Positions 3,357-56,952 of a DNA stretch of 64,000 nucleotides are shown one piece after another. The notes under the pieces were generated by a model. That model did not search any database, had not been told where the DNA came from, and saw only the letters and a list, made by a program, of their open reading frames with translations. Each line of letters opens with the position of its first letter. Positions within the stretch are counted from its first letter, which is position 1. This DNA is from Prevotellaceae bacterium (GTDB lineage: Bacteria; Bacteroidota; Bacteroidia; Bacteroidales; Bacteroidaceae), in assembly GCA_028724165.1 (NCBI GenBank), contig JAQYDL010000033.1, positions 30,283-94,282 on the forward strand, given 5' to 3'. A program made the position numbers and the translations under genes.

Positions 3357-3500
3357 AGAGTTTTTGTGAGTTGATGCATATTTGCTTATTGGGAAGCCGA
3401 AAAAATACAAGCCATATATTTTGAAATAAGTGCCTTGTATTTTAAAATATATGGCTTGTATTTTTTGCGATTTCCCTTGTCTTTCGAACTCTTTGATATT
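3357..3500 (-). repeat. Composite palindromic intergenic element, copy 1 (units 3400-3466, arms on both sides)
   Basis: Units are aaaaaatacaagccatatatttt / gaaataagtgccttgtatttt / aaaatatatggcttgtatttttt. The left arm is tttttagagtttttgtgagttgatgc... The right arm is degenerate (gcgatttcccttgtctttcgaactctttg). Confidence 0.85.
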
Positions 3501-3654
3501 TAAGAAGATAAAGAACGCGAAAAATATGGCGCAAAAGGCAGGCGTGAGGCGGTGTTTTTTACGTTTCCCGTCCGATGTTTCTTTGTGTCGGGATTTTATT
3601 GCAAATAATTCGATTTTCTTCAAACCTATGCCGCCAAATGGCGCAGCATTGGCG

Positions 3655-3662
3655 TATCTTTG
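3655..3662 (+). promoter_or_regulatory. -7 box TAtcTTTG upstream of the WYL gene
   Basis: TATCTTTG lies 44 nt upstream of the ATG at 3706. Confidence 0.5.
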
Positions 3663-3705
3663 CCTCAGAAATTTACGCTTGTGATGCGTAGCAAACAGTT
3701 TTACA

Positions 3706-4641
3706 ATGGTTGATAACGACAGAGGGCAGAGCCTGATGAGTAAATACGTGTGGGTGATTGAAACCATTTTTCGTGCCGGAAAGATTTCTTTCAGAGAGTT
3801 GAACGAGAAGTGGCTCAACGCAGACATTTCACGGGGTGTGGACATTCCGAAACGCACTTTCGACAATTGGCGCTGCGCCATTTGGGACGTTTTCGGCATT
3901 GAAATAGCCAACGAAAACCGTGGCGAATACCGATATTACCTTTCCAACGCAGAAGACATAAGCAAAAACGGTATGCGTTCGTGGCTTTACAACTCTTTTT
4001 GCGTTAGCAACACATTAGCCAACAGTCAGAGCATAAAAGATCGCATAGTTTTGGAATACGTTCCCTCGGGTCAGGAATATCTGCAGCCCATTGTTGAAGC
4101 CATGAAAGAGAATCGCGTCCTAAATATCACGTATCACAGTTATTGGAAAGACGAGGAGAACAATTTCGACGTGCAACCTTTCTGTATAAAACTGTTCAGA
4201 CAGCGGTGGTATCTGGTTGCACGAAGCACCTATTCATATTATTATGACCAAGGACCGAGAATTTATGCTCTCGACCGCATTCACAACCTCCACACCAAGG
4301 AAGAAAAGTTCGAATTGCCCAAAGGATGGAATGCAAAGGACTTCTTTGCCGGATGTTTCGGCATTGTTGCGGAACAATCGGTAAGCATTCAGCCCGTAAA
4401 GCTTAAAGTTTCGGCGGGACAGGCTAATTATATTCGCAATTTGCGGCTCCACGAATCGCAGCAAGAGGTTGAGCGCAACGAGGAATACAGCATATTCACA
4501 TATTTTCTGCGTCCCTGTTACGATTTTATTCAGGAAATTCTTTGGAACGGGGAAGACGTTGAAGTTATGGAGCCTTTATGGCTTCGCAAGGCGGTATCGG
4601 ATAAAATAAAAAGGATGTGGAATAAATACAAAGAGGATTAA
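3706..4641 (+). CDS. WYL-domain transcriptional regulator (wHTH-WYL-WCX architecture)
   Basis: The N-terminal part looks like a winged HTH (VIETIFRAGKISFRELNEKW). The central part has the WYL signature (ITYHSYWKD...FDVQPFCIKLFRQRWYLVARS). An alternative start at MSKY is at 3736. Confidence 0.85.
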   Translation: MVDNDRGQSLMSKYVWVIETIFRAGKISFRELNEKWLNADISRGVDIPKRTFDNWRCAIWDVFGIEIANENRGEYRYYLSNAEDISKNGMRSWLYNSFCVSNTLANSQSIKDRIVLEYVPSGQEYLQPIVEAMKENRVLNITYHSYWKDEENNFDVQPFCIKLFRQRWYLVARSTYSYYYDQGPRIYALDRIHNLHTKEEKFELPKGWNAKDFFAGCFGIVAEQSVSIQPVKLKVSAGQANYIRNLRLHESQQEVERNEEYSIFTYFLRPCYDFIQEILWNGEDVEVMEPLWLRKAVSDKIKRMWNKYKED

Positions 4642-4643
4642 GC

Positions 4644-5135
4644 ATGAAAAATTTTGCTGCCATAGATTTTGAAACTGCCAACAACGAACGAAGTTCGGTG
4701 TGCAGTGTCGGCATCGTAATAGTTAAAAACGGCGAGATTGCCGATTCTTTTTATTCCCTCATCCTTCCCGAGCCGAACTATTACAATTATTGGTGCTGCC
4801 AGGTGCATGGTCTCGGACACAACGACACGGATAACGCCCCGATATTCCCGGAAGTTTGGAAACAGATAGAACCTCTTATCAAAGGGTTGCCTCTGGTGGC
4901 TCACAACAAGCTTTTTGACGAAGGGTGTTTGAAGGCTGTTTTCCGCGTTTATCAAATGGAATATCCCGGCTACAGGTTTTACGACACACTGCAGGCATCG
5001 CGGCGCAAACTGCGAGAGCTGCCCAACCACCAACTCCAGACTGTGGCAGAAGCCTGCGTCTACAAATTGGAAAACCATCACCACGCGCTGGCTGACGCAG
5101 AGGCTTGCGCATGGATAGCGAGGGAAATATTGTAA
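4644..5135 (+). CDS. DEDDh-family 3'-5' exonuclease (DnaQ/epsilon-like, single domain)
   Basis: Exo I is AIDFETAN, Exo II is VAHNKLFDEGCL, and Exo III is HHALADAEACA (H-x4-D). The start is 2 nt after the WYL gene stop. Confidence 0.88.
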   Translation: MKNFAAIDFETANNERSSVCSVGIVIVKNGEIADSFYSLILPEPNYYNYWCCQVHGLGHNDTDNAPIFPEVWKQIEPLIKGLPLVAHNKLFDEGCLKAVFRVYQMEYPGYRFYDTLQASRRKLRELPNHQLQTVAEACVYKLENHHHALADAEACAWIAREIL

Positions 5136-5227
5136 ACCGCAAGCCATTGCTTCTATGTGCCAACCGTCTTTCCGATATGCCTTACCCGACAAAAAATGAA
5201 AACAGTCCGCAAGTACACTCCCACCCC

Positions 5228-5743
5228 ATGAACAAAAAAATAATATTCCTTGATTTCGACGGCGTTCTCAACACAGAACATTATCAAAACCTGCTTTACT
5301 ACCAGGGCAAGACAGGTAGCGACAAATACGGCACACTGTTCGACCCCGAAGCAGTGGAACAGTTGAAAAGAATTATAGACGCAACCCATGCCGAAATAGT
5401 CATTGAATCGTCATGGAAGTGTCTCGGTTTGAACTTTCTGCGCGAAATGTGGGAAGCACGAAGCATGCCGGGATGGATAATCGGCATCACGCCGGCGGCG
5501 GCAGGCGACAGCTGGTTACTGTCAGTCGATTTGAACGAAACAGACCCGGCAACAGCTCCCAGCAAAGGCTTGGAAATAGCCTCATGGCTGTCAGACCACG
5601 CTACCCGAAGCACACGATACGTAATAATCGACGATGAGTTTGTGATACTCGAAGCTCAGCGAAAGCACTTTCTCATGACAGATTCATACAACGGCATCAC
5701 CGAAGAATTGGCAAACAGAGCCATTGCCATTCTTAACGGTTAA
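5228..5743 (+). CDS. Small stand-alone HAD-superfamily phosphatase-like protein
   Basis: The start is taken at MNKKIIFLDFDGVLNTEHY, which holds the DxD nucleophile motif. Later motifs are VIESSWK and YVIIDDE. The ORF-track N-terminal extension from 5105 overlaps the exonuclease gene. Confidence 0.75.
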   Translation: MNKKIIFLDFDGVLNTEHYQNLLYYQGKTGSDKYGTLFDPEAVEQLKRIIDATHAEIVIESSWKCLGLNFLREMWEARSMPGWIIGITPAAAGDSWLLSVDLNETDPATAPSKGLEIASWLSDHATRSTRYVIIDDEFVILEAQRKHFLMTDSYNGITEELANRAIAILNG

Positions 5744-5804
5744 AGCCCGCGCCAAGCCCCGAAATTCGTCCGAAAATCCTCCAAAATCTCGCCTTTTACA
5801 ATCT

Positions 5805-5920
5805 TCTTAAAAACAACTACTTATAATCGCGAAAAATACAAGGCACTTATTTTAAAATAAGTGCCTTGTGTTTTAAAATATATGGCTTGTATTTTTTACA
5901 ACAAGCCATGTGTGTTTTTT
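5805..5920 (+). repeat. Composite palindromic intergenic element, copy 2
   Basis: gaaaaatacaaggcacttatttt / aaaataagtgccttgtgtttt / aaaatatatggcttgtatttttt / acaacaagccatgtgtgtttttt. The left flank is atypical (cttaaaaacaactacttat). Confidence 0.85.
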
Positions 5921-6032
5921 CAATGCCCGAAACGGGGCGAAACAGATGCCGTTTTCGTGAAACGAATCGGGCATTAGTTGCTACGCACGGGTTTTTGGGG
6001 GAGTTTGAAACCGATACTTTTGCTTTTTTGTT

Positions 6033-6040: not shown

Positions 6041-6043
6041 TAG

Positions 6044-9928
<3,885 letters not shown>

Positions 9929-10967: not shown

Positions 10968-11128
10968 GAGGGTTTGTGAGGGCATTTCGCCTCACCGGAA
11001 AAAGCATAAGGCACTTCGCAAAAAACATAAGCCATATATTTTAAAATACAAGGCACTTATTTTAAAATAAGTGCCTTGTATTTTTCAGTTTTCCAAGAAG
11101 CTGATTAACAGCAACTCACAAAAGCCCT
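10968..11128 (-). repeat. Composite palindromic intergenic element, copy 3 (with inverted arms)
   Basis: Units are at 10998-11085. The left end gagggtttgtgag (10968-10980) is inverted relative to the right end ctcacaaaagccct (11115-11128). Confidence 0.85.
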
Positions 11129-11156
11129 AAAAAAGCCCCTCCCCGTCTCGTTTTTT

Positions 11157-11576
11157 TGCTCGTAAAACACCACGTATTCTTCGCCAAACACACTTTGTTA
11201 CTTGCCAAACAACATTCATTTCTTACCAAACAGACTTAATCCCTCGCAAAACCACATTTTTCAATTATTTACAAAACTACATTCCCCGCAACTCCATCTT
11301 TACCACTCATAATACAGCATTTTTAATTCAACAAACTACATTTACCCAATATCATACTACATTCACCCCTTACACAACTACCTTTATCTATCACAAAGAA
11401 ATATCTATACTTTACCAAACACAATACAACCATTATCCAACAACCCTTACCCATTACGAAACCCACTTCGTCCCACACCCAACTACATTCATCCCTTAAC
11501 CAACTACATTCCTCCTTTACACAACTACCTTTATCCCTTACACAACTACCTTTATCCCTTAACAAACAGACTGCAT
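11157..11576. repeat. Tandem array of twenty 21-nt units, G-depleted on the + strand
   Basis: Hand alignment places a unit every 21 nt from 11157 to 11556 with no indel. Examples are cccttacacaactacctttat (11367 and 11535; 11514 differs at one base), cccttaaccaactacattcct, cccacacccaactacattcat and tacttgccaaacaacattcat. There are about 14 G in 420 nt. Confidence 0.9.
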
Positions 11577-13884: not shown

Positions 13885-16041
13885 TTATTCCTTTACCACT
13901 TTCCAAGCAGCTTTTCCTTTATATGTTGTTTTTTCCGACTTATATCCGGGGGCAACGTAATTGGTATGTTCGCCATCGGCATCATTATCGGCCGGATTGA
14001 ATCCCACAAAAATTCCGCCATAAACATTAATGGAGCAAACCGAAGTGGTTCCATCTTTTCTATTAAGCAGATATTTCGGATTTGCAGCCTCGAATACTCC
14101 TCCGTATATATTGCAAACGGAATGAAGTTTACCGTCATTGCTGTCCACATATATACATGCATTTGGTTTTCCGTTTACATCGAGTCCGGTATAGAAGTAT
14201 CCGCTGTAAATATTAGCAGTACCTGAATTAACGAAAACGGCATTGTTTACGATACTACCTTCACCTCCGTTAACCTCTACATTGCCAAAGATATTCAGCA
14301 CACCCTTTTCGGCTGTCAATGCACATGTTCCGATTTGTGTTGAAGTATTATTGCTTGCGCCGATAATCTTTCCGTTACCATATACATCAAGTTGTCCGCC
14401 TTTTACAACCTTTATTGCAGAAATTCTGTTTTGGGTTGATTTCAATTCCGCGCCTTTTTCCACGGTGAGGGTTGCTTTTTTGCCCAACGTGGTGTACTTG
14501 TTTACTTCCACATTACTGCTTACCACGATGTTATTCCCCGTTGTTTTGAAAGCATTTAGCAAATCGTCATTAGTTGCAGCCACTGCGTCTGCTTTCTTCA
14601 CCGTCCAGGCTTCCTTACCATTGTAAGTTGTCTTTACAGATACGTAACCGGGAGCAACGAAATTGGTGTGTTCGCCCTCGGCATAGTTGTCGGCAGGATT
14701 GAAATTGACAAATGTTCCGCCGGTTACTATAATCTTTGCCGTACCTGCTTTTCTGTTTGCATCATAACAGTTGAGCACGAACTCATCTTCCTTGCCGACT
14801 TGTGAATACTTCTGTTGAACTTCAAAAACTCCGCCTTCTATTTCGGCAGTACCCTCATATACATACACTGCATGGATGTTGCCGTTATAGTGTCCGCCTT
14901 TTATCACAAGGTGACCGCCGTCCTGCACGTCAACCGGGAAGCAGTCGTTCTCTTTTGCTATCACGTCGCCCTCACCTTCGAGAACGAGCGTTCCGCCTTG
15001 GACACTGAACAAGGACCACTGGTATTTGCTTTCATCCCAAAGGTCGTTGTTGTTCTTCAGTGCCTTTCCGTTCAGATTAGCCACGAGACTTTTTCCCTGA
15101 GGTACGATTACATTAGACGTGAAGTCCATACCTTCGCCGACTTTAATCATACCACCGTTTTTGGCAGCTGCCTTAAATTCGTCGAAAGAGTTTATTTCGG
15201 TTTTCTCTATAGTGCCCGTATAACCCATGTAAATTGGCGGCATTACAATCCAGTCGCATCTCTTTACGGTGTTCTCGGCTTCGCTCGAAAGGCTGTCCAC
15301 TACAGTTCCGTTGTTCTTTATATATATTGTACATCCATTGTACACACCAACCGGAACAGGCATGTAAAAATGTATTTCCTTTGTATCGGAGGTAAGTTCG
15401 AATTTGAAAGAAACTTCGTCAGCCACGTTTTCTTTTGCCGAAACATAGGGATTGCTCTTGTCGGTAGCGTCTACTTCGAAATCGCCACTGACGCCGCTGT
15501 TCATTTTCACCGTAAATTCATCGATATATGCCGGAACTTCAACATCCCATTCTATTACGCCGCCCACATGACGGAAAAGGAATTGATGTTCATTCTTTTC
15601 GAAATAAGCAACCATGGGATCGCTCACGCTCATACTGTCTTTGTTGTAATCGGTATTGTAGTTTTTGTAAACGTTCGGGTAGCTAACCGTCAGTTTTCCG
15701 TCGGCATAGCTTTTTGCTGCCTTAACGGGGAAAACTGCCACGTCGGTGGGTTTGCCACCTACCGAACTGCCGTAATTCGCCACGTCGGTGCCTGCACCGC
15801 CTACCATTTTCAATGTGCCGAACCCTACAGACTCGCTGCCTTTGGTGAGATAAGCGGCAATATCATCGCCTTGCTCCCATTTGAATGCGCCGTGCGAGTC
15901 GCTATAAGAGCGAGACGCCACGCCTTTTTCCACTACGGCGGAATATTCGCCGTTTTGTTTTGCCAGAAACTGCTCGTCCTGGCTGCAACCTGCCAATGCT
16001 GCAACTCCAAGTCCTATCAGGACTACATTCAGTTTGTTCAT
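13885..16041 (-). CDS. Cell-surface lipoprotein: fimbrillin-like N-terminal region plus two duplicated beta-helix-like modules
   Basis: Lipobox LAGCSQ. The N-terminal ~270 aa resemble Bacteroidales fimbrillin-like proteins (DPMVAYF...FLFRHVGGVIEW). Two ~200-aa modules end in near-identical tails: FNPADNYAEGEHTNFVAPGYVSVKTTYNGKEAWTVKK and FNPADNDADGEHTNYVAPGYKSEKTTYKGKAAWKVVKE. Confidence 0.8.
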   Translation of the reverse strand: MNKLNVVLIGLGVAALAGCSQDEQFLAKQNGEYSAVVEKGVASRSYSDSHGAFKWEQGDDIAAYLTKGSESVGFGTLKMVGGAGTDVANYGSSVGGKPTDVAVFPVKAAKSYADGKLTVSYPNVYKNYNTDYNKDSMSVSDPMVAYFEKNEHQFLFRHVGGVIEWDVEVPAYIDEFTVKMNSGVSGDFEVDATDKSNPYVSAKENVADEVSFKFELTSDTKEIHFYMPVPVGVYNGCTIYIKNNGTVVDSLSSEAENTVKRCDWIVMPPIYMGYTGTIEKTEINSFDEFKAAAKNGGMIKVGEGMDFTSNVIVPQGKSLVANLNGKALKNNNDLWDESKYQWSLFSVQGGTLVLEGEGDVIAKENDCFPVDVQDGGHLVIKGGHYNGNIHAVYVYEGTAEIEGGVFEVQQKYSQVGKEDEFVLNCYDANRKAGTAKIIVTGGTFVNFNPADNYAEGEHTNFVAPGYVSVKTTYNGKEAWTVKKADAVAATNDDLLNAFKTTGNNIVVSSNVEVNKYTTLGKKATLTVEKGAELKSTQNRISAIKVVKGGQLDVYGNGKIIGASNNTSTQIGTCALTAEKGVLNIFGNVEVNGGEGSIVNNAVFVNSGTANIYSGYFYTGLDVNGKPNACIYVDSNDGKLHSVCNIYGGVFEAANPKYLLNRKDGTTSVCSINVYGGIFVGFNPADNDADGEHTNYVAPGYKSEKTTYKGKAAWKVVKE

Positions 16042-16240: not shown

Positions 16241-16498
16241 ATTCCTCTTTATTTTAGCGTTTTATTTATCTTTCTTGCCAAAAACATGCGTCGGATTTCA
16301 TTCTCTCCGCCTATCCTTAGTAGTTTCAAAAGTACTGAAACTTCTTAACATTACAAAAAAAAAACGAACTTTCGCTAAATTATTTGACACACGCCTTTAT
16401 TTTGTAATTTTCCGCCCCCTAAACGCAAACTTTCGGCAAATGGCAAAACGCATTTCCATGCGCTTCAAACACAGGAAGCACATTCCGAAAATTATTCC

Positions 16499-16506
16499 TA
16501 TCTTTG
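16499..16506 (+). promoter_or_regulatory. -7 box TAtcTTTG upstream of the GH30 gene
   Basis: TATCTTTG lies 27 nt upstream of the ATG at 16533. Confidence 0.5.
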
Positions 16507-16532
16507 TGCATGACAATCTGCAATACCCAAGC

Positions 16533-17987
16533 ATGAAAACAATTACATTCATAAAACAAGCGGGCATTATTCTCACCGCCTGCCTTGGCTTTCAAACCGT
16601 TCCGGCACAGAATTACGAAATTTCCAATATTGTGCAAAGCCGCGCCGGCGACTTGAAAATGATGCGTCCCGTTGGTTTCAAACAATTCATTGAAGATTTC
16701 GGCGCAGAAGGCGAAGTGATAAACGTCTATCCCGACGTGGAGTATCAGGAAATGCTCGGATTCGGCGGCGCAATAACCGAAACTTCGGCTTATAACTTTA
16801 TGAAACTCTCCGAGAGCCGCCGCAACGAACTCGCAAAGGTTTACTTCGATGCCACAGAGGGACTGGGACTGAATTTCTGCCGTGTTTCCATTGGTTCAAA
16901 CGATTTCGCACTTGACGACAGCCCGTATGTGAGCAACAATGACCCTAAACTCACGACTTTTTCCATTGACCGCGACAGAAGATACGTAATACCCATGATT
17001 AAAGCGGCTCAACGCTACTGCGGGGAACTGTATCTCATGGCCACTCCCTGGAGTCCGCCGGCTTTCATGAAAGACAACGGGAAAACCATCAATGGCGGCA
17101 AGCTTCTGCCCGAGCATCGCAACACATGGGCGGATTATATTGTGCGCTTTTTGCAGGAATACAAGAAAGAGGGCATAAACTTTTTCTGTATGACGGTTCA
17201 AAACGAACCCAAGGCTTCGCAAAAATGGCAGAGCTGCCTATATTCGGGCAAAGAAGAGGGAGAGTATGCGGTGGATTTCCTGAAACCTCATCTCGACAAA
17301 GCCGGTTTCGACACTCTGAAGCTCATTGTCTGGGATCACAACAAAGAGCGCGTGCTCGAAAGAGCCTCAGAGAGCTTTGCCGTGCCGAAAGCCAGAAAAG
17401 CCATCTGGGGCGTTGCCTTTCATTGGTATTCGGGCAAACATTTCGACCAACTGCGCATGACCCACGAGCGGTTTCCCGAAAAGCACCTCATACTTTCGGA
17501 ATTCTGTAAAGGACCCGCCACGGGCGGAACCCATGTTCCTTATGGCGATTGGAGCGATGCGGAAGATTATTGTGCAGAAATGATAGGCGATTTCAATAAT
17601 TACGCCTGCGCATCCATAGATTGGAACATGATTGTAGACACAAAAGGCGGACCCTGTCTGTATCGCGACGACATAGGCGGCGGAAAGGCATCGGTGGTTG
17701 CGGACGCAGAAAACAACAGCTTCGAGTTGCAATCCACTTACTACGCCGTGGGACATTTCAGCAAGTACGTGAAGCGCGGCGCACGCCGCATTGGCAACAG
17801 CACATACGATGACAACCTGCTGACATCCTCGTTCAAAAACCCCGACGGCAGTATTGCCGTAATCGTTCTCAATAAAGGCAACAACAATCTGCGCCCGTTG
17901 CTGCGGATGAACGGGAAAATAATGCGTCTGAATCTGCCGCGCCATTCCATAACCACTGTTTCTATAAAAAGCAAAGGCGCAAAATAA
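16533..17987 (+). CDS. Glycoside hydrolase family 30 (glucosylceramidase/beta-1,6-glucanase-like)
   Basis: The start is at MKTITFIKQAGIILTACLG, a signal peptide. GH30 hallmarks are MATPWSPPAFMK, TVQNEP and FHWYSG. The ORF-track extension from 16275 is rejected. Confidence 0.88.
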   Translation: MKTITFIKQAGIILTACLGFQTVPAQNYEISNIVQSRAGDLKMMRPVGFKQFIEDFGAEGEVINVYPDVEYQEMLGFGGAITETSAYNFMKLSESRRNELAKVYFDATEGLGLNFCRVSIGSNDFALDDSPYVSNNDPKLTTFSIDRDRRYVIPMIKAAQRYCGELYLMATPWSPPAFMKDNGKTINGGKLLPEHRNTWADYIVRFLQEYKKEGINFFCMTVQNEPKASQKWQSCLYSGKEEGEYAVDFLKPHLDKAGFDTLKLIVWDHNKERVLERASESFAVPKARKAIWGVAFHWYSGKHFDQLRMTHERFPEKHLILSEFCKGPATGGTHVPYGDWSDAEDYCAEMIGDFNNYACASIDWNMIVDTKGGPCLYRDDIGGGKASVVADAENNSFELQSTYYAVGHFSKYVKRGARRIGNSTYDDNLLTSSFKNPDGSIAVIVLNKGNNNLRPLLRMNGKIMRLNLPRHSITTVSIKSKGAK

Positions 17988-18068: not shown

Positions 18069-18190
18069 GAAAAAACACATGGCTTATCGCAAAAAATACA
18101 AGCCATATATTTTAAAATACAAGGCACTTATTTTAAAATAAGTGCCTTGTATTTTTCGCGCTGTCAAACATCTGATAAACAGCAACTTAT
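18069..18190 (-). repeat. Composite palindromic intergenic element, copy 4
   Basis: gaaaaaacacatggcttatcgc / aaaaaatacaagccatatatttt / aaaatacaaggcacttatttt / aaaataagtgccttgtattttt, then arm cgcgctgtcaaacatctgataaacagcaactt. Confidence 0.9.
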
Positions 18191-18292
18191 CCCAGACCTT
18201 TCAAACCCGGGGAATTTACTGATTATCAGCCGCTTAAAGAGAAAAGCATGGTTTGTGCTCAAAGTTCGGCGGCACGCCACGAAAAATGATTG

Positions 18293-18333: not shown

Positions 18334-19686
18334 ATGAGTGGAAACAACACCCGACAGTATGGCGAACTCATCAAAATAGGTACGCCCGTAATCATTGGGC
18401 AACTGGGCACCATAGTGCTCGGCTTTGCCGACACGCTGATGATTGGGCACCACAGCACAAACGAGCTTGCCGCCGCAGGACTGGTGAACAATGTTTTTGC
18501 ACTTGTTCTGCTGTTCTATCTCGGCTTTTCCTACGGTCTCACACCCATTGTGGGACAGCTTTACGGCGTTGACCGAAAGGAGGAAATAGGCAGCAAACTC
18601 AAAAACGCCATACCCGCCAACCTCCTGACAGGCTTGCTGCTCATGACATTGATGACGGTGCTCTACTTTAACCTTGCCCACATTGGACAACCCTCCGAAC
18701 TGCTGCCGCTGATACGTCCCTACTTCATTGTGAACCTCGTGAGCCTGCCCTTCGTGGGAGTGTTCAACACGCTGAAGCAGTTTTTCGACGGCACAACGCG
18801 CACCGGCGTGCCGATGTGGGTGATGATAGGCGGAAATCTCTTCAACATTCTCTTCAACTGGCTCCTGATTTACGGCAAAGGCGGTTTCCCCGAAATGGGA
18901 TTGCTTGGCGCGGGAATTGCAACCATGGCTTCGCGCATACTGATGGCATTAAGCCTGTGCGCCATACTGTTTTGGGCAAAATCCAACCGTGTTTACCGTC
19001 TGGGCATGAGTAATGCACGCATAAACAAAGCCGATTTCCGGGAAATGAACCGCATGGGCTTTCCCGTGGCTCTGTTAATGGGAATGGAAACTGCCGCTTT
19101 CAGCCTAAGCAGCGTTATGGCAGGATGGTTGGGAACGCCCTCGCTTGCCGCACATCAGGTCATGATAACCACATCGCAGCTTTTCTACCTCATATTATTA
19201 GGCATGGCAGCCGCCGTGTCCATACGCATAAGCCTCTTTACGGGACAAAAAAACTACGCGGCGGTTCGCCGCACTGCCGCCGACGGCTTCCGTCTGAATC
19301 TTATGGCTTCGTTCGCAATGTCAATACCTTTGCTTATTTTCCGAAACCACATAGGCACATTTTTCACCGACAGCGCGGAAGTGGCAAATATGGTGGCGGG
19401 ACTTTGCATAGTGCTTGTGGTCTATCAGTTTGGCGATGGATTGCAGTGCATATTTGCCAACGCGCTCAGGGGAATAGCCTGCGTAAAACCTATGGTGCTT
19501 TACGCATTTCTGGCATACTTCGTAATAAACCTGCCGTTGGGATATTTCATGGGCTTTACCCTCAAGCTCGGAATTACAGGCATTTGGGCGGCGTTTCCAT
19601 TCGGGCTTTCGGCGGCGGGTTTGCTGTACTGGCTCAGATTCCGACGCGAACTGAAGAAAATGGAAGCCGGCGCAAACGCGGCATAA
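18334..19686 (+). CDS. MATE family efflux transporter
   Basis: The start is at MSGNNTRQYGELIKIGTPVIIGQLG. The protein has about 12 TM segments and typical MATE/NorM N-terminal wording (IG.P....QL......D..M.G). Confidence 0.9.
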   Translation: MSGNNTRQYGELIKIGTPVIIGQLGTIVLGFADTLMIGHHSTNELAAAGLVNNVFALVLLFYLGFSYGLTPIVGQLYGVDRKEEIGSKLKNAIPANLLTGLLLMTLMTVLYFNLAHIGQPSELLPLIRPYFIVNLVSLPFVGVFNTLKQFFDGTTRTGVPMWVMIGGNLFNILFNWLLIYGKGGFPEMGLLGAGIATMASRILMALSLCAILFWAKSNRVYRLGMSNARINKADFREMNRMGFPVALLMGMETAAFSLSSVMAGWLGTPSLAAHQVMITTSQLFYLILLGMAAAVSIRISLFTGQKNYAAVRRTAADGFRLNLMASFAMSIPLLIFRNHIGTFFTDSAEVANMVAGLCIVLVVYQFGDGLQCIFANALRGIACVKPMVLYAFLAYFVINLPLGYFMGFTLKLGITGIWAAFPFGLSAAGLLYWLRFRRELKKMEAGANAA

Positions 19687-20570: not shown

Positions 20571-21581
20571 ATGGTAAACTACAAAGAACTCGGCTTGGTC
20601 AACACCCGCGATATGTTCAGCAGAGCCGTTAAAAGCGGTTGGGCAGTTCCTGCATTCAACTTCAACAATCTTGAACAGCTTCAGGCAATAATCACAGCCT
20701 CTTCCGAACTCCGCTCTCCGGTGATTCTTCAGGTTTCAAAGGGCGCACGTAAATATGCAAACGCTACACTTCTCCGCTACATGGCTGAAGGTGCAGTACA
20801 GTTCGCTAAAGAACTTGGCTGCAACCACCCTGAAATAGTTCTTCACCTTGATCACGGCGACAGCTTCGAACTTTGCAAGAGCTGTGTGGACCTCGGTTTC
20901 TCTTCTGTAATGATTGACGGAAGTTCACTCCCCTATGAAGAGAACATTGCCCTTACAAAGAAAGTTGTTGACTACGCCCACCAGTACGACGTAACCGTAG
21001 AAGGCGAACTCGGTGTGCTTGCCGGCGTTGAAGACGAGGTAGCTGCTGAAGAAAGCCACTACACACGTCCCGAAGAAGTTATCGACTTCTCAACACGTTC
21101 AGGCGTTGACTCGCTCGCAATCTCAATTGGTACATCACACGGTGCTTACAAGTTCAAACCCGAACAGTGCACACGCGACCCGAAAACCGGACGTCTCGTT
21201 CCTCCTCCCTTGGCATTCGACATTCTTGCCGAAATCGAGAAACAACTTCCCGGATTCCCAATCGTACTTCACGGTTCTTCTTCTGTTCCTCAGGAGTATG
21301 TTGACATTATCAACAAGTACGGCGGTCATCTTCCCGATGCAGTCGGAATACCCGAGGATCAGCTTCGTCAGGCATCAAAGAGCGCAGTTTGCAAAATCAA
21401 CATTGACTCAGACTCTCGCCTTGCATTTACTGCCGGTGTACGTGAAACTTTCGCTCTTCACCCCGAATATTTCGATCCTCGCCAGTATTGTGGTAAGGCT
21501 CGCGAATATATGGTTGAACTTTACAAGCACAAAATCACCGATGTGCTTGGTTCTGACCACAAACTCGCAAACTGCGACTAA
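20571..21581 (+). CDS. fba: Class II fructose-1,6-bisphosphate aldolase
   Basis: Motifs are PAFNFNNLEQ, LHLDHGDS, SIGTSHGAYKF and VLHGSSSVPQE. Confidence 0.96.
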   Translation: MVNYKELGLVNTRDMFSRAVKSGWAVPAFNFNNLEQLQAIITASSELRSPVILQVSKGARKYANATLLRYMAEGAVQFAKELGCNHPEIVLHLDHGDSFELCKSCVDLGFSSVMIDGSSLPYEENIALTKKVVDYAHQYDVTVEGELGVLAGVEDEVAAEESHYTRPEEVIDFSTRSGVDSLAISIGTSHGAYKFKPEQCTRDPKTGRLVPPPLAFDILAEIEKQLPGFPIVLHGSSSVPQEYVDIINKYGGHLPDAVGIPEDQLRQASKSAVCKINIDSDSRLAFTAGVRETFALHPEYFDPRQYCGKAREYMVELYKHKITDVLGSDHKLANCD

Positions 21582-21605
21582 TAAGTTTAGAAACAGAGAT
21601 ATTAA

Positions 21606-21642
21606 ATCGGGCTTCGCTTCATTGCGAAGCCTGATTTTTTTT
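21606..21642 (+). terminator. fba rho-independent terminator
   Basis: atcgggcttcgc-ttcatt-gcgaagcctgat followed by tttttttt. Confidence 0.8.
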
Positions 21643-21848: not shown

Positions 21849-21970
21849 GAAAAAACACATGGCTTATCGTAAAAAACATAAGGCACTTATTTTAAAACAA
21901 GTGCCTTGTATTTTAAAATATATGGCTTGTATTTTTTGCCTTTCCAAATGCCTGAAAAACAAGAACCTGC
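21849..21970 (-). repeat. Composite palindromic intergenic element, copy 5
   Basis: gaaaaaacacatggcttatcgt / aaaaaacataaggcacttatttt / aaaacaagtgccttgtatttt / aaaatatatggcttgtatttttt, then arm gcctttccaaatgcctgaaaaacaagaacc. Confidence 0.9.
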
Positions 21971-22051
21971 AAAACGCGAAAAATTCGTCTTGAAAACAGG
22001 TTTTTCCTGCAGTGTTTTGGTATAGCGAAAGCAGCGAAAAAAGAGCTATTC

Positions 22052-23237: not shown

Positions 23238-23380
23238 CCGCTTTAACGGCAAAGCACATTGCACGGAGCGAAATTTAACGAAGTTTCGGAGCTTCGCCTT
23301 TTCGGTGTTCACACCCCGGTTTGCAGAATTTCCGAGTGCCGTTTACCGCCGCCGGAAACGCCTAAAATGTCGCTTTCAAA

Positions 23381-23500
23381 AGTTATTGTTTTCCAGACAT
23401 TTGAAAAGGCGAAAAATATAAGGCACTTATTTCAAAACATAAGGCACATATTTTAAAATATATGCCTTGTATTTTTTACAACAAGCCATGTGTGTTTTTC
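23381..23500 (+). repeat. Composite palindromic intergenic element, copy 6
   Basis: Arm agttattgttttccagacatttgaaaaggcg, then aaaaatataaggcacttatttc / aaaacataaggcacatatttt / aaaatatatgccttgtatttttt / acaacaagccatgtgtgttttt. Confidence 0.9.
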
Positions 23501-23605: not shown

Positions 23606-23639
23606 AAAAAAGAAACCCACACGATTTGCACCGTGCGGA
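23606..23639 (-). terminator. Probable terminator after the PBP1A gene
   Basis: The minus strand reads ccgcacg-gtgcaaat-cgtgtgg, a 7-bp stem with one G-U pair, followed by gtttctttttt. Confidence 0.45.
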
Positions 23640-23667
23640 TTCTTCCGATATTAGCATTCGGGATTTG

Positions 23668-26348: not shown

Positions 26349-26470
26349 GAAAAAACACATGGCTTGTTGCGAAAAACATAAGGCATATATTTTAAAATAC
26401 AAGGCACTTATTTTAAAATAAGTGCCTTGTATTTTTTGCCTTTCCAAATCCCTGAACCACAACAACTTAC
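26349..26470 (-). repeat. Composite palindromic intergenic element, copy 7
   Basis: gaaaaaacacatggcttgttgc / gaaaaacataaggcatatatttt / aaaatacaaggcacttatttt / aaaataagtgccttgtatttttt, then arm gcctttccaaatccctgaaccacaacaactt. Confidence 0.9.
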
Positions 26471-26531
26471 AAAAACTCAAAGAAAAACCTTAACTTTTTG
26501 GTTCTTAGGTAGTTAAGAAAAACGCCGTCAT

Positions 26532-30256: not shown

Positions 30257-31303
30257 TTATTTTTCTTTGTTTTCGTTTTTTTGTTTGTCCATTTCCCTTT
30301 TCATTTCGTTCACCTGTCTGAACATTTCGGGAAGATTGCGGAACACAGCCGCTGCCTTTGCAAAGCGTCGGGCATCTATTGCCGGCGAACCGAGAACAGT
30401 TTGTCCTTCTTTCAGTATTGGTCCGGCTATACCCGCCTGTGCTCCGGAATGTGTGCGCGATGCGATTTTGGCATGTCCCGTTATTCCTACCTGACCTCCG
30501 AACATGCACCATTCGCCTATCTTTGTAGAGCCTGCCACTCCCACTTGCGCCGACATCACAGTGTTTGCGCCTATTTCATCATTGTGAGCTATCTGCACAA
30601 GATTGTCGAGTTTTACGCCGTTGCCTATTTTGGTTGTTCCCATCATGGAACGGTCCACACACGTGTTTGCTCCAATTTCCACGTTGTCGCCTATTTCCAC
30701 GTTTCCTATCTGCGGAATCTTTTCGTAGCCGTCCGGTGTTGGTGCGAAACCGAATCCGTCGGCTCCTATGACGCATCCGGAATGGAGTATAACGCCCGAA
30801 CCTATTTTGCAATGGTGATAAACGGACACGTTGGGATATATTATGCAGTTGCTTCCTATCACGGAATGTTCTTCAATGGTTGCATTGGGATAAATCTGCG
30901 TTCCGTCGCCCACTACAACGCCATCGCCTACATAAGCCAACGGACCCACGTAAACGTCTTTGCCCAATTTGGCGGTTTCGCTCACATACGCGCGTTCGCT
31001 CACCCCTTTGCGTTTGGGTTTGCTCTGCTCGTAGAGATTCAGAAGTCTCGCCACCGATTCGCGAGGGTCTTTAACCTTTATCAGTGTGGCTTTAACCTCA
31101 CGCGCAGGTTCGAAATCCTCAGGCACAAGCACTATGCTCGCATCGGTTTCATAAACATAGTTCTCGTACTCTTTGGCATAAAAGAAAGTGAGTGCGCCGT
31201 TCTTTGCCGAATCAATGTTCGAAAACGTGTTAACACTTGCATTCTCGTTTCCCACAATGCTTCCGCCAAGAAATGCGGCTATTTGTCCGGCTGTAAATTC
31301 CAT
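30257..31303 (-). CDS. lpxD: UDP-3-O-acylglucosamine N-acyltransferase
   Basis: The start is at [14 protein letters not shown]. It has hexapeptide repeats. The C-terminal Lys/Glu tail [14 protein letters not shown] is unusual but in frame. Confidence 0.93.
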
Positions 31304-33041: not shown

Positions 33042-33082
33042 ACCGAAAGCCGGACTCCTGCGAGTCCGGCTTTCGGTTTTTA
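33042..33082 (+). terminator. purF-like gene terminator
   Basis: accgaaagccggactc-ctgc-gagtccggctttcggt followed by tttt. Confidence 0.85.
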
Positions 33083-33220
33083 TGCCCGCTAAAACCGCAC
33101 GCCACAAGCCGCATGACTCCCTGCGCAACGACAATGCTTTCGATAGGAAAACGCGAGATTTGTGCATTTTTTACAACATTCTGAAAATCACCTTTTTACA
33201 GCAAAACAGAAGACTTTTAT

Positions 33221-33340
33221 AAGTTCTTGTGTTTCAGACATTTGAAAAGGTCAAAAATATAAGGCACATATTTTAAAATAAGTGCCTTGTATTTTAAAAT
33301 ACATGGCTTGTATTTTTTGCGATAAGCCATGTGTTTTTTC
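33221..33340 (+). repeat. Composite palindromic intergenic element, copy 8
   Basis: Arm aagttcttgtgtttcagacatttgaaaaggtc, then aaaaatataaggcacatatttt / aaaataagtgccttgtatttt / aaaatacatggcttgtatttttt / gcgataagccatgtgtttttt. Confidence 0.9.
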
Positions 33341-33359: not shown

Positions 33360-33394
33360 AAAAAAGTCCCGCATCATTTTGCTGACGCGGGACT
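33360..33394 (-). terminator. alaS terminator
   Basis: The minus strand reads agtcccgc-gtcagcaaaatgat-gcgggact followed by tttttt. Confidence 0.7.
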
Positions 33395-33420
33395 CGATTT
33401 ATACGGATTAAGAACTAATT

Positions 33421-36133: not shown

Positions 36134-36481
36134 ATGCCTTTATCCGAGAACAAAGACTTGAAACTATACTACTCGATAAGCGAAGTAGCGAAAATGTTCA
36201 ACGTTTCCGAAACCCTCCTCAGGTTTTGGGAAAAACAGTTTCCGCAGATAAAGCCGCGAAAAAGCGGGCGAAACATCAGGCAATACAGTCGCGACGACAT
36301 TGAGCAGGTGCGCCTGATATACAACCTTGTGAAAGTTCGCGGGCTTAAACTCGCAGCCGCACGCGATGCGCTGAACAAGAATCACAGCGGCGAACAGCAG
36401 ACAACCGAGGTGATTGAAAAGCTTAAAAACATACGCATCGAGCTTGTAAACCTGAAGCACAGCCTTGACCAGTTTTTATAG
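36134..36481 (+). CDS. MerR family transcriptional regulator
   Basis: 115 aa with the HTH YSISEVAKMFNVSETLLRFWEKQF, followed by a coiled-coil C-terminus. Confidence 0.88.
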   Translation: MPLSENKDLKLYYSISEVAKMFNVSETLLRFWEKQFPQIKPRKSGRNIRQYSRDDIEQVRLIYNLVKVRGLKLAAARDALNKNHSGEQQTTEVIEKLKNIRIELVNLKHSLDQFL

Positions 36482-36888
36482 ACCGAACGCATAAAAACCG
36501 TGTCCGCACCGCGCACATTCGAACACACAACCCGATATCTTTCCACCGCAAGGCATTCCTTTGGGAGTACATGATACACGTTTCCATAAAAACGAAACGC
36601 GCAAGTTTATTAACACCTTTCTTTACGGGGCACACCTCACAAATCCCCAAACGTTCCGTTTATTAATTTCATTCAGTCTCTTTTCGCAATAAATTTTCGG
36701 GAACTTGCACCCCCTGCTCGCCTTTCCTTTGGGGAAACCTGGCACATACTACCAAACCAAACGGACTTGTACCCTGAGGCACGTCTTTTCTTATGGAGCT
36801 TGTTGCACATGTCCCGAAACGCAGATAACCAATAATCAATCATAAGCCATTTCTCATAAAACACAATGCAAACGCTCCTGCACATGTT

Positions 36889-36902
36889 GAACTTGCAAGT
36901 TC
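36889..36902. promoter_or_regulatory. Perfect 14-bp palindrome GAACTTGCAAGTTC, with a matching 12-nt half-site at 36698-36709
   Basis: gaacttgcaagttc is its own reverse complement. cgggaacttgca (36698-36709) is the inverted complement of tgcaagttcccg (36894-36905). Both lie in an 870-nt gene-free gap. Confidence 0.3.
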
Positions 36903-37170
36903 CCGTAGCACCTTACTAATGACACATACCCCATATTTCCCATGACGGATGTATTCTACATCAAACGGCAAGGTACTTAACTTGGGGGTACATCAACATG
37001 TTTAGGAACTTTCCTTTCGCATTTTTCCGCATACCGCATATAGCATAACACTTTTAAGAGACCTGTAAAAATGAGAGTATGTGAAGGCTAACAACGTGCC
37101 GTTTTCAGACACCGCTTCCCTCAAAAAATTCAACGCTTTCAAGACCTGTTTTTACAGACATGGGATGTAA

Positions 37171-37265
37171 GAAAAAACATAAGGCACATATTTTAAAATA
37201 CAAGGCACTTATTTTAAAATAAGTGCCTTGTATTTTTCGGCATTCCAACTGTCTGAAATCCAATA
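37171..37265 (-). repeat. Composite palindromic intergenic element, copy 9 (no fourth unit)
   Basis: gaaaaaacataaggcacatatttt / aaaatacaaggcacttatttt / aaaataagtgccttgtattttt, then arm cggcattccaactgtctgaaatcc. Confidence 0.88.
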
Positions 37266-37290
37266 TCGTTTTTCGGGCTTTATAAAACAA

Positions 37291-37323
37291 GTCTTCCCCG
37301 GGCAAAATATGCCCGGGGAAGAC
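37291..37323 (-). terminator. Terminator of the SusC/D operon (perfect 13-bp stem, potentially bidirectional)
   Basis: gtcttccccgggc-aaaatat-gcccggggaagac. On the minus strand it is followed by ttgtttta. Confidence 0.7.
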
Positions 37324-43524: not shown

Positions 43525-43989
43525 GAAAATTCTTTTAACTGCAAAAAGATTCCTTTATGTTATTTTTACAGGGTGTAAACAGGTACTTTTCTTCGTTTTT
43601 TAACAAAACGGCAATGCTTTATGCCGTTTTTCCCAATTATTTCCATTTCGTTTCGAATTTCAAACTAAAATCGGGATGTAAAAAAAGACAAAACGACAAA
43701 ATGTTAAAATTTCGCCGACATTTTCTCCGTGCAGAATTTTTTATTTGCAACTTTTTATTTTGTCAGATTTACTTTACATTTCTTTTATTCTTGTTAACCA
43801 AACGTTCTAACCGCTTGCGTGTGCTTTGACCCGTGTTTCCGCCGGCATTTCCGGGCATAAAACAGCGCGACACTCCCATCCCGCCCATCACATCCGGCAC
43901 ACCGCCGCCGGAGACTCGCATAACGGTTTGAAAACACGGCTTAAAAACGGCAAAAAACACCTCAAAAACGTCGTTTTACAAGTTGCTGT

Positions 43990-44110
43990 TTTTCAGATGT
44001 TTGAAAACGTCAAAAATACAAGGCATATATTTTAAAATACAAGGCACTTATTTTAAAATATGTGCCTTATGTTTTTTACGATAAGCCATGTGTGTTTTTT
44101 GCACAATACA
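43990..44110 (+). repeat. Composite palindromic intergenic element, copy 10
   Basis: Arm aagttgctgtttttcagatgtttgaaaacgtc, then aaaaatacaaggcatatatttt / aaaatacaaggcacttatttt / aaaatatgtgccttatgtttttt / acgataagccatgtgtgtttttt. Confidence 0.9.
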
Positions 44111-49056: not shown

Positions 49057-49147
49057 TTCACATTTTTCAAATTCCGAGGCACGGCAGCTAAAAAACAGAC
49101 GCAAAAACACCACATTTCAAGGCAAATTTCCGACCCTTTCCCGCACA

Positions 49148-49238
49148 TTGTTTTTCAAGCACTTAACACGCTCAAAAATACAAGGCACTTATTTTAAAAC
49201 ATAAGGCACATATTTTAAAATAAGTGCCTTGTATTTTT
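49148..49238 (+). repeat. Composite palindromic intergenic element, copy 11 (no fourth unit)
   Basis: Arm ttgtttttcaagcacttaacacgctc, then aaaaatacaaggcacttatttt / aaaacataaggcacatatttt / aaaataagtgccttgtattttt. Confidence 0.88.
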
Positions 49239-51473: not shown

Positions 51474-51495
51474 TTAACGACCAATAAAAATAAAC

Positions 51496-54935: not shown

Positions 54936-54969
54936 AGAAAGAATATCAAAACAATAAAAACAAACAGAT

Positions 54970-55494: not shown

Positions 55495-55554
55495 TATCAT
55501 TATATTTGCACCCCGTACATAACGGAATATAAATAAGATAATCAACTATAAACA

Positions 55555-56052
55555 ATGAAAAAAGTAATTCTTACGGCTCTTCTGTTCTTACCGTTGAGCC
55601 TCTTTGCGCAGAAGTTCGGTCATTTCGATTCTTCCGAAATCGTCAAGGCAATGCCCGAATACGCTAAGTCGCAAACCGAAATCCAGAATCTCTCAAAGCA
55701 GTTCGAGGACGAAATCAAACGTATGCAGGACGAGCTTACCAAAAAAGGTCAGGAATATGACCGTCAGCACGATTCACTTCCCGACAACGTCAAGAAGCGT
55801 CGCGAACAGGAACTTCAGGAGCTTTATCAGCGCATTCAGCAGACTTCCAACGACGACCGCGATTCCTTGCAGGCTGCTTCGGCCAACAAGATGCGCGAAA
55901 TCACACAGAAAATCGTTAATGCCGTTAAAGCTGTGGGCGATGAGGGCAAATATGTTTACATCATGGATGTAACAGGTGGCATACCTTACATCAGCAAGAG
56001 CCTCAGCGAGGACGTAACAAAGAAAATCCGCGAAAAACTCGGTTTGAAATAA
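55555..56052 (+). CDS. ompH: OmpH/Skp-family periplasmic chaperone (second copy)
   Basis: 165 aa with a signal peptide and a coiled-coil, paralogous to the preceding gene. Confidence 0.9.
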   Translation: MKKVILTALLFLPLSLFAQKFGHFDSSEIVKAMPEYAKSQTEIQNLSKQFEDEIKRMQDELTKKGQEYDRQHDSLPDNVKKRREQELQELYQRIQQTSNDDRDSLQAASANKMREITQKIVNAVKAVGDEGKYVYIMDVTGGIPYISKSLSEDVTKKIREKLGLK

Positions 56053-56074
56053 TCCGCAGAAAAAGCATAAATCA

Positions 56075-56108
56075 AAGCGCATGCCCTTCGGGGGATGCGC
56101 TTTTTTGT
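56075..56108 (+). terminator. Terminator after the bamA-ompH cluster
   Basis: aagcgcatgccc-ttcg-ggggatgcgctt followed by ttttt. Confidence 0.8.
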
Positions 56109-56207
56109 TGTCTTTCGGACGGTATGCCACAACGGTGGCGCGAAATGGGGCGGTCGAAACCCGAAATCTCGTTTATTTGCAGTAATTTTGCATTTCGAAA
56201 ACAATAA

Positions 56208-56584
56208 CGGCAATCATCCGGTCTGTCGCCGGCGGAAATCAAAAATCCGCAGGAGGAAAGTCCGGGCAACACAGGACAGTCTCCTTCCGAAACGGAAGTT
56301 ATCCGCGAGGGTAAGCAAACTGTAGAAGAAAACAACCGCCCTCCGCAAGGATGGTAAGGGTGAGAAGGCGGGGTAAGAGCCCACCGGGCGCATGGTGATG
56401 TGCGTGCCGTGCAGTCGAGACGTTGAAAGTTCGCGTAAACCGGCGTTTGAGGGTTGTCCGCCCGAAACTTCGTTACGCCGGAGGGTAGAACGATAACGCC
56501 TGCAGGCAACTGCGGGCTTAGATAAATGACAGACGGCGATTCGCGAGAGTCGCGCACAGAACTTGGCTTATAGGATAATTGCCG
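56208..56584 (+). ncRNA. rnpB: RNase P RNA, bacterial type A
   Basis: Conserved regions are GGAGGAAAGTCCGGGC (56251-56266), GGGTGAGAAGGCGGGGTAAGAGCCCACC and ACAGAACTTGGCTTATAGG. The P1 stem pairs cggcaatcatcc (56208-56219) with ggataattgccg (56573-56584). Confidence 0.93.
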
Positions 56585-56593
56585 AACTCAAAT

Positions 56594-56637
56594 GCGGCGC
56601 AAACTCTCTCTTACACTGGTTTGCGCCGCTTTGCTTT
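56594..56637 (+). terminator. rnpB terminator
   Basis: gcggcgcaaac (56594-56604) pairs with gtttgcgccgc (56619-56629), followed by tttgcttt. Confidence 0.7.
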
Positions 56638-56829
56638 CCATGCCCGCCAACGACGCAACGCCGTTTTCATACACTTTCTCCGTTTCTGTTTATGCCATGC
56701 GCCGCAAAACATTCCGTCCCACTCTTTCGTCCTGCCTCAAAAAACGCAGCAGAGGTCCGAAAACAATCACGGCAATATGCCGCCACGCATGCAAAATTTC
56801 CCTTTTTTGAACACACATTTTCACATGTG

Positions 56830-56952
56830 CAAAAAAACACATGGCTTATCGCGAAAAATACAAGGCACATATTTTAAAATAAGTGCCTTGTATTTTAAAA
56901 TATATGCCTTATATTTTTTGCCTTTTCAAACATCTGAAAAACAACGACTTAT
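56830..56952 (-). repeat. Composite palindromic intergenic element, copy 12
   Basis: aaaaaaacacatggcttatcgc / gaaaaatacaaggcacatatttt / aaaataagtgccttgtatttt / aaaatatatgccttatatttttt, then arm gccttttcaaacatctgaaaaacaacgactt. Confidence 0.9.

Follow-up and report, generated by a model that had tools for sequence, protein, structure and literature searches.

What kind of repeat occupies the spacers between ordinary genes in a 64,000-nt stretch of DNA (hereafter, the window; positions 30,283 to 94,282 of contig JAQYDL010000033.1, assembly GCA_028724165.1) from an uncultured human-gut Prevotellaceae bacterium? An initial annotation, made from the sequence alone, had listed 12 copies of a composite palindromic intergenic element, and here we followed up that observation. 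[quoted passage not shown]

All 12 loci were borne out, far beyond chance. A Hamming-distance scan found exactly three contiguous 21-nt units without indels at each of them (core starts at 3402, 5833, 11022, 18093, 21873, 23413, 26373, 33254, 37174, 44013, 49175 and 56855 for copies 1 to 12), which turns the three units of ~21 nt proposed earlier into a strict register, and Tandem Repeats Finder reported a period of 21 with 0% indels at 12/12 loci. At three or fewer mismatches, the 21-mer AAAATACAAGGCACTTATTTT had 34 matches in the window compared to 0.00 expected, and the variant unit AAAATACAAGCCATATATTTT had 28 compared to 0.02. Based on open reading frame (ORF) calls and a Pfam scan of the neighbours, every window copy was intergenic. 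The neighbouring ORFs are ordinary housekeeping ones (nuo genes, WYL, GH2, groES/EL, GH30, MatE, FBA, MFS, PBP1a and miaA), with lpxACD, alaS, SusC/D, arg genes, bamA, ompH and the RNase P RNA gene as further neighbours of this kind. Overall, the family accounts for ~2–3% of the sampled DNA.

The copies share one layout, namely an arm, unit 1 (+), unit 2 (+ or −), unit 3 (−) and a fourth unit (+). With the arm on the left, the orientation pattern of the three units was ++− or +−− at every window locus, and the 63-nt core B-A-a occurred in both orientations relative to the arm and fourth unit. The units fall into three main types, A (..CAAGGCACTT..), B (..CAAGCCATAT..) and C (..CATAAGGCACAT..), all of which occur both ways round. 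Units abut head to tail without a linker, in an exact 21-nt register. The arm is ~45 nt long, with the conserved core motif TTGTTTTTCAG-N3-TTTG and the consensus ..TTTTgtAAGTTgTTGTTTtTCAGataTTTGaAAAgGc.A among window copies, and the fourth unit, TTRCGAYAAGCCATGTGTTTTTT, contains GAYAAGCCATGTGTTTTTT and lies on the side opposite the arm in most copies. A fourth unit had been credited to nine copies, but its canonical form is present in eight, with a variant in copy 3, a degenerate remnant in copy 1 and none in copies 9 and 11. The units, arm and fourth unit of the architecture described earlier are all present, with the corrections that unit 2 takes either orientation, that the arm of copy 2 is flipped and that copy 9 is flanked by an arm on either side. 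Copies 8 (33174–33191) and 12 (56981–56998) are accompanied by an additional inverted arm motif further out.

Conservation is uneven along the element, with 88–90% identity between copies in the units, 81% in the fourth unit and only 55% in the arm. The motif TTTCAG-N4-TTG was enriched in the window (8 matches compared to 1.05 expected), with 7/8 matches in or beside elements; some arms read WATCAG-N4-TTG, which we take to be similar to the Escherichia coli IHF consensus. A/T tracts recurred ~11–12 nt apart on the arm-side flank, relative to an imperfect control of random windows that were mostly coding. On the right flank, a k-mer analysis detected only a weak GTCCCGMAAC extension in ~5 copies and no other conserved module, and the outer boundaries of the element are fuzzy. 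In one frame, the 21-nt units are stop-free heptads (KIQGTYF / KISALYF / KIYGLYF).

The repeat is also abundant outside the window. Searching a public protein collection of 5.8 billion clusters with the translated element yielded 66 small ‘proteins’ without Pfam domains (P0166–P0231), which represent at least 24 loci outside the window based on their flanking residues. These are spurious ‘hypothetical proteins’ of 33–77 residues called across elements (for example, L001 5893–6015 and L002 4141–4308). Two unrelated 20-kb regions, each comprising 10-kb flanks around such an ORF, contained three complete copies apiece, and the density across 124 kb of window-type DNA was one copy per 5–10 kb. This suggests ~270–500 copies per ~2.7-Mb genome, a figure extrapolated from the 124 kb sampled rather than counted, and agrees with the several hundred copies per genome projected from the window alone. 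All of the 21 window-type copies seen were intergenic and palindromic. Among the matches listed from a scan of a genome collection with the 21-mer, there was one true copy, on an unrelated and mis-binned 2.8-kb contig, and one chance match inside a gene. In an assembly collection, one window neighbour protein was listed in 2446 index blocks, among which were contigs from gut metagenomes and a contig of 2,690,597 nt.

Next, we compared the window with graded relatives, found by searching for homologues of MFS, the gene that separates copy 5 from copy 6. Six strain-level contigs carried copies 4–6 in the same place and the same orientation, and in one of them an A-to-G change restores pairing in the copy 5 hairpin. 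An invertible switch was rejected, there being no orientation difference between strains at copies 1–6, though the orientation of the core varies between copies. The syntenic locus of a congeneric species (L009; MFS protein 95% identical, genes at 80–86% DNA identity, around 82%, GC content of 53% compared to 46% in the window) had no window-type units. It contained six elements in 21 kb, as did a second congener-type locus (L102) in 20 kb. These elements share the arm motif, the 21-nt period, the four units and the two-hairpin fold with those of the window, but their unit sequences (GAAAAAAGGTCTGATGTAGTC, TGGATTATATCAGACATAATT, TTTCCTACGTCCTATGTAGTT and TTTCCTATATCAAACGTAGTT) are unrelated. 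Neither species’ units occurred in the other (0 matches across 124 kb of window-type DNA, and likewise 0 across 41 kb from the congener). The centres of the hairpins are displaced by 1–2 nt between the two species, and a gapless register fails.

The annotation had suggested looking for presence/absence differences, and these were found between related species. Both species have an element in the copy 4, copy 5 and copy 7 spacers: the L009 element upstream of MatE (copy 4 spacer) has the same arm-proximal orientation, the one in the copy 5 spacer has the same orientation with arms that align and units that differ, and the one in the copy 7 spacer lies in the opposite orientation. The copy 6 site was empty in L009 and in two further relatives, L094 (MFS 85% identical) and L096 (80% identical), which also lacked elements at the copy 5 site and the copy 7 site, respectively. 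At copy 6, the filled site and the empty site of L009 differ by ~300 nt, which is more than the recognisable element, and the ends of the element therefore could not be fixed. A more distant locus (L010; MFS 78% identical, GC content of 58.5%) contained a single arm-less copy, with two inverted window-type units around an L009-type unit; because this copy mixes both unit types, both appear to be old. No units or arms were present in 80 loci (1.2 Mb) of Prevotellaceae at 59–69% MFS identity, which were obtained from a metagenome scan with the MFS protein and served as a negative control. Two contigs of relatives begin inside unit-like sequence, as is expected if a high-copy repeat breaks assembly. 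We also considered the arm as a pre-existing target site, which is disfavoured by the lack of solitary arms and by the joint absence of arm and units at empty sites.

High copy number, intergenic placement, orientation-shuffled units, gain and loss between relatives and species-specific units on a shared scaffold are together the reason for the REP/BIME-like reading. Because the units are ~89% identical between copies compared to 55% for the arms, and because the units switch fully between congeners, we infer that a trans-acting factor recognises or homogenises the units specifically. In the mechanism we propose, a lineage-specific protein would recognise the units in a sequence-specific manner, and the likeliest recogniser would be whatever enzyme spreads the copies or keeps them homogeneous: a transposase or recombinase that binds several phased sites, or else an HUH/Y1 enzyme that acts on the hairpins. 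The arm may supply a conserved accessory site or a bent-DNA module. Since its units take both orientations, the element folds or extrudes either as a tandem pair of 42-nt hairpins or as a single long nested one. A copy lying directly after a terminator-less gene probably also terminates transcription in both directions, which we regard as a by-product. Recognition of duplex DNA by a multi-site binding protein, as at transposon ends or iterons, is suggested by the register of exactly two helical turns, the constant count of four units and the phasing of the A/T tracts; this also leaves room for a domesticated architectural role.

Several observations weigh against this reading. The window, L098–L102 and L009 contained no transposase, RAYT or other candidate partner, the DNA inspected amounting to ~6% of the genome. 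Terminal inverted repeats are absent in 11/12 copies, the two ends of the element being non-complementary; an arm at either end is present in copy 9 alone, where the two match each other poorly. Nor could a target-site duplication be defined from the one filled/empty pair (copy 6 compared to L009), and the MITE or Correia-like label given initially is not upheld in its strict sense. Positions and orientations are stable across the strain-level contigs examined, with no sign of recent mobility. Vertical inheritance with unit replacement, in place of transposition, could account for the spacers filled in both species, and neither account is a clean fit to the opposite orientation found at copy 7. 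Finally, the near-identity of the units could arise from gene conversion or quasipalindrome correction without a protein partner.

We then compared the element to described families. At gathering thresholds, only RNase P passed in an Rfam search of the window, and at E ≤ 1 the elements gave only generic hairpin matches to miRNA precursor models (26–38 bits compared to thresholds of 44–211). BLAST searches of phage and plasmid collections returned no relevant match to the element, and viral contigs scanned with a 28-nt palindrome returned none. A literature search on Prevotella and Bacteroidales repeats turned up only the MITEs of Porphyromonas gingivalis and an automated MITE census; the earlier impression of an undescribed family was supported by the Rfam results and by the literature searched. 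Like REP sequences and REPINs, which are imperfect extragenic palindromes of ~20–40 nt with >100 copies per genome, the elements are extragenic, palindromic and high in copy number, the copy number being extrapolated. They also show the regular spacing (21 nt), alternating orientation (+ (+/−) − +) and mosaic association of freely combining unit types with an extra motif (the arm) that typify BIMEs. The proposed REP assignment fails in the strict sense, since GTAG, GTGG and CGTC are absent from the unit types AAAATACAAGGCACTTATTTT, AAAATACAAGCCATATATTTT and AAAACATAAGGCACATATTTT, from the fourth unit and from their complements. No RAYT gene was found in the DNA inspected, <10% of the genome: a regular-expression search detected no RAYT or IS200-like HUH...Y ORF in the window or the loci searched, and PF01797 had no match among the scanned window proteins or the gene tables of later loci.

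The congener’s units end in GTAG. Separately, its locus L009 has a classical GTAG ‘double-foot’ REP (GTAGGGGCGTATTGCATACGCCCTGTAC / ...GGGCGTATGCAATACGCCCCTAC) beside its elements (11370–11500, 15230–15260, 18410–18470 and 20990–21040), sometimes as an inverted, REPIN-like pair, and this REP has no copy in the window.

Which other explanations could account for the element? When unit 2 is inverted, the predicted structure is an arm hairpin and a tandem pair of 42-nt hairpins (units 1.2 and 3.4) with a U-run after them, and when unit 2 is direct it is a single long, nested hairpin. Compared to shuffled controls, folding is far stronger on both strands (z = −3.7 to −8.6), with copy 4 illustrating the first structure (z = −8.6) and copy 10 the second (z = −4.7). 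The hairpins are 12–19 bp long and are followed by T4–T7 on both strands, and a terminator scan flagged 5838–5869, 11043–11084, 21880–21907, 26394–26435 and 49183–49229 within elements. These features favour a view in which the family serves mainly for bidirectional intrinsic termination or transcriptional insulation, as a standard hairpin and U-tract cassette selected at gene ends, as does the location of 4/12 window copies at convergent junctions. In addition, copies 2, 3, 4 and 5 lie directly 3' of genes (HAD, hypothetical, GH30 and MFS) that have no other convincing terminator, and these copies probably do terminate transcription. We nonetheless consider this explanation improbable. A canonical GC-rich terminator often comes before the hairpin and T-run, as for FBA (21604–21637), PBP1a (23613–23642), a GATase_7 gene (33042–33077, +) and alaS (33364–33395, −), the last two of which enclose copy 8, and the PBP1a terminator is kept in L009 where copy 6 is absent, so that termination cannot explain the family in general. 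Furthermore, copy 1 lies in a divergent promoter region, relatives lack the element at the same junctions, and termination needs neither a 45-nt arm, nor an exact 21-nt phase, nor a single genome-wide unit sequence. The annotation had likewise argued, from the variety of junctions, that a simple terminator role does not explain all copies, and their frequency and varied placement exceed what termination alone would account for. That the elements are multicopy small RNA genes or cis-regulatory untranslated-region RNAs, such as mRNA-stabilising hairpins, is very unlikely. Their strong predicted structure on both strands would suit such a role, and copies 2 and 4, which begin 42 and 83 nt past a stop codon, must be co-transcribed with the adjacent genes. 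Yet they match no Rfam family beyond the sub-threshold miRNA-model hairpins, many copies lie beyond canonical terminators, and tandem contexts include two arm-first and four fourth-unit-first copies, making orientation relative to the neighbouring genes inconsistent. The arm (GAYRTTTG) also lacks the TA of TAnnTTTG, the consensus of the Bacteroides −7 promoter box. By inspection, TAnnTTTG boxes occur instead upstream of MFS and PBP1a, where alignments show that they are kept in the congener, and the arm was rejected as a promoter; a promoter scan, which used a sigma-70 rather than a Bacteroides-type consensus, picked up only TTTAAA/TAAAAT unit junctions. Together, the inconsistent orientation and the lack of the −7 box leave a promoter or small RNA gene without support, and no evidence was gained for the small RNAs suggested earlier.

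Equally improbable, in our estimate, is that the elements are domesticated DNA-architectural sites, in which a bent arm with a putative IHF/HU-type site would stand beside four phased 21-bp sites for a nucleoid or topology protein whose specificity differs between species. The exact 21-bp register of two helical turns and the presence of four units in both species are consistent with this, as are units that are species-specific and homogeneous beside an arm motif common to both species, the enrichment of TTTCAG-N4-TTG almost exclusively in or beside elements, and A/T tracts phased at ~11–12 nt in the arm-side flank (relative to the same mostly coding control windows). The E. coli BIMEs, which are bound by gyrase and IHF, provide an analogy. 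Through the two-turn phasing, the species-specific units and the phased A/T tracts, the nucleoid-protein binding array listed among the annotation’s candidate functions thus gains some indirect support. Conversely, no candidate protein was found in the part of the genome inspected, relatives lack elements at the same sites with no obvious replacement, and the mosaic orientations and decayed copies 1 and 11 resemble neutral turnover. More doubtful still is a proposal in which the elements, rather than being junk or simply selfish, serve as architectural or insulator sites genome-wide. Here, a conserved bent arm with a putative IHF/HU-type site would again stand beside four phased 21-bp sites, now for a DNA-binding protein of their own that would have switched specificity between the congeneric species, and the site ‘dialect’ and its binding protein would co-evolve, with hundreds of sites rewritten in concert. 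In a variant of this proposal, the partner would be a mobilising enzyme of a hitherto unknown kind that installs unit cassettes beside the conserved arm.

The individual copies illustrate how variously the family is placed. Copy 1 (3354–3487, +) consists of an arm (3354–3401), units B a b (3402–3464) and the degenerate fourth unit (3465–3487), between a 98-residue ORF/nuoA (−) and a WYL gene (+); its divergent junction was correctly assigned in the annotation. In another strain (L100 10147–17303 and L101, with flanks 99% identical), a 7157-bp island replaces 31 nt of the copy 1 arm (3369–3399). The island encodes a small serine recombinase (PF00239, Resolvase), a 1052-residue MmeI/Eco57I-like restriction-modification enzyme, an AAA_14/DUF4143 ATPase and a TaqI_C-domain protein. 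Its left junction has an extra fourth-unit-like sequence (TTGCAAGATGCCTTATGTTTTTT), and imperfect direct repeats lie inside its left end (TTAAAAATATGCTCCGAGTCATCG, L100 10211–10234) and just past its right junction (CTAAAAATGCTCCGAACCGTCG, L100 17316–17337). Between copies 1 and 2, a three-gene cluster (3706–5743) encodes a WYL/WCX regulator, an Rv2179c-like/RNase_T 3'-5' exonuclease and a HAD_SAK_2 protein, whose domain is the HAD domain of ‘Swiss Army Knife’ RNA-repair proteins; the cluster looks like a nucleic-acid repair or defence-associated module. Copy 2 (5785–5918, +) begins after the HAD_SAK_2 gene and has a flipped arm (5785–5832), units A a b (5833–5895) and a fourth unit (5896–5918).

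Copy 3 (10999–11132, −) occupies the convergent spacer between a hypothetical gene and groEL, with the variant fourth unit at 10999–11021, units at 11022–11084, including the perfect A.a hairpin flagged as terminator-like, and the arm at 11085–11132. Between this copy and the groEL 3' end is a stretch of ~400 nt (11183–11565) that is almost G-free on the + strand and overlaps a 96-residue ORF without a Pfam match. It contains 21-nt-period direct repeats (CAACTACATTCATCCCTTACA, 4.1 copies), a second array (11183–11237) and many AACTACMTT motifs, and it may represent either a C-rich, Rho-utilisation-like tract or an array, now decayed, of the congener’s CTACAT-type units. Copy 4 (18070–18203, −; fourth unit 18070–18092, units 18093–18155, arm 18156–18203) lies in the GH30/MatE spacer. 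The GH30 gene (16275–17987) is absent from the congener’s locus, and a 718-residue ORF without a Pfam domain (window 13885–16041, −; L009 15876–18038) has ~68% DNA identity between the two species compared to 80–86% for its neighbours.

Copy 5 (21850–21983, −; fourth unit 21850–21872, units 21873–21935, arm 21936–21983) lies between FBA (+) and MFS (−), copy 6 (23365–23498, +; arm 23365–23412, units 23413–23475, fourth unit 23476–23498) in the MFS/PBP1a spacer and copy 7 (26350–26483, −; fourth unit 26350–26372, units 26373–26435, arm 26436–26483) in the PBP1a/miaA spacer. Copy 8 (33174–33339, +) starts with its outer inverted arm motif, followed by the arm (33206–33253), units (33254–33316) and fourth unit (33317–33339). 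In copy 9 (37126–37284, +), the arm (37126–37173) and units (37174–37236) are followed by the inverted second arm (37237–37284), which adjoins a bidirectional terminator (37291–37323); between a MerR gene and this copy, ~650 nt (36481–37126) contain no ORF of ≥80 residues, no tRNA and no Rfam match. Copy 10 (43965–44098, +; arm 43965–44012, units 44013–44075, fourth unit 44076–44098) separates a SusC-like gene from an aminotransferase gene. Copy 11 (49127–49237, +) has a weak arm (49127–49174) and units A C a (49175–49237) and lies upstream of a DUF6242 gene; because the neighbouring ORFs lack Pfam support, its context is ambiguous and the divergent junction assigned to it is uncertain. Finally, copy 12 (56832–56998, −; fourth unit 56832–56854, units 56855–56917, arm 56918–56965, followed by the outer inverted motif) is ~250 nt downstream of the gene for a bacterial RNase P class A RNA (56210–56586, +; 198 bits, E = 1e-62).

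Bacteroidales are the dominant Gram-negative order of the human gut, and to our knowledge REP-like repeats have been studied almost entirely in Proteobacteria, with little known in Bacteroidales. The repeat described here, from a prevalent gut Prevotellaceae bacterium, seems to break short-read assemblies, yields spurious small ORFs in public protein databases (66 clusters) and is a site of strain variation, as illustrated by the restriction-modification island inside copy 1 in another strain. Two species with one design and unrelated units amount to a natural experiment on the co-evolution of a repeat and the protein that recognises it, and the pattern of an arm followed by a 21-nt phase is a searchable signature for finding its putative partner protein.

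REP sequences and BIMEs are high-copy, extragenic, imperfect palindromes with regular spacing and alternating orientation, which can act as terminators and, in E. coli, bind IHF, gyrase and Pol I (PMC2817692, PMC3333891). The new elements resemble the REP, BIME and REPIN families of Enterobacteria and Pseudomonads in being strictly extragenic mosaics of palindromes, with species-specific sequences and intergenic locations shared between species, and the strain-specific island inside copy 1 parallels the use of REPs as insertion targets (PMC1525189). They differ in that their units are AT-flanked 21-mers lacking a GT[AG]G or CGTC foot, abut one another, are fixed at four and are attached to a conserved non-palindromic arm of ~45 nt. 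In Bacteroidetes, RAYT subclass 2.6 is associated with ‘atypical’ REPs, GC-rich hairpins of 24–35 nt in Flavobacteriia and Cytophagia (PMC6006769). Lacking a GTAG foot, the window units do not form a BIME built from RAYT-type REPs (PU), and they bear no resemblance to the subclass 2.6 REPs listed (PMC6006769, Table S1). A DNA-uptake sequence was rejected as well, since the units are never solitary or inside genes.

BOX elements of Streptococcus pneumoniae have the structure boxA-boxB(n)-boxC, in which boxA and boxC form inverted-repeat ends and the 45-nt boxB unit varies in number. They are likewise modular, structured intergenic sequences of ~100–200 nt with an end module and a short head-to-tail unit, present in >100 copies. 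In our elements, by contrast, the units are fixed in number, 21 nt long and found in both orientations, there is usually one end module, and there is no sequence similarity. Like MITEs, including the Correia elements of Neisseria and BrickBuilt, the elements are short, AT-rich non-coding sequences between genes, high in copy number and differing in presence/absence between relatives. BrickBuilt occurs in Bacteroidales and contains internal 23-nt tandem ‘bricks’ (PMC4596501). Its unit is directly repeated and variable in number, unlike ours, and the BrickBuilt/MITE464 brick of P. gingivalis, AGAYCATARTATCCTCTCRTRTG, is unrelated in sequence. The Tn7 TnsB sites, the end sites of Mu and plasmid iterons of 19–22 bp are contiguous or phased protein sites of ~21–22 bp, or two helical turns. 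The new elements have comparable phased candidate sites of ~21 bp in direct and inverted orientation, and the DNA inspected showed no transposon or protein of that sort. The transposon and iteron sites are confined to a single locus and attached to a transposon or replicon, whereas the Prevotellaceae repeat occurs as hundreds of isolated copies without cargo.

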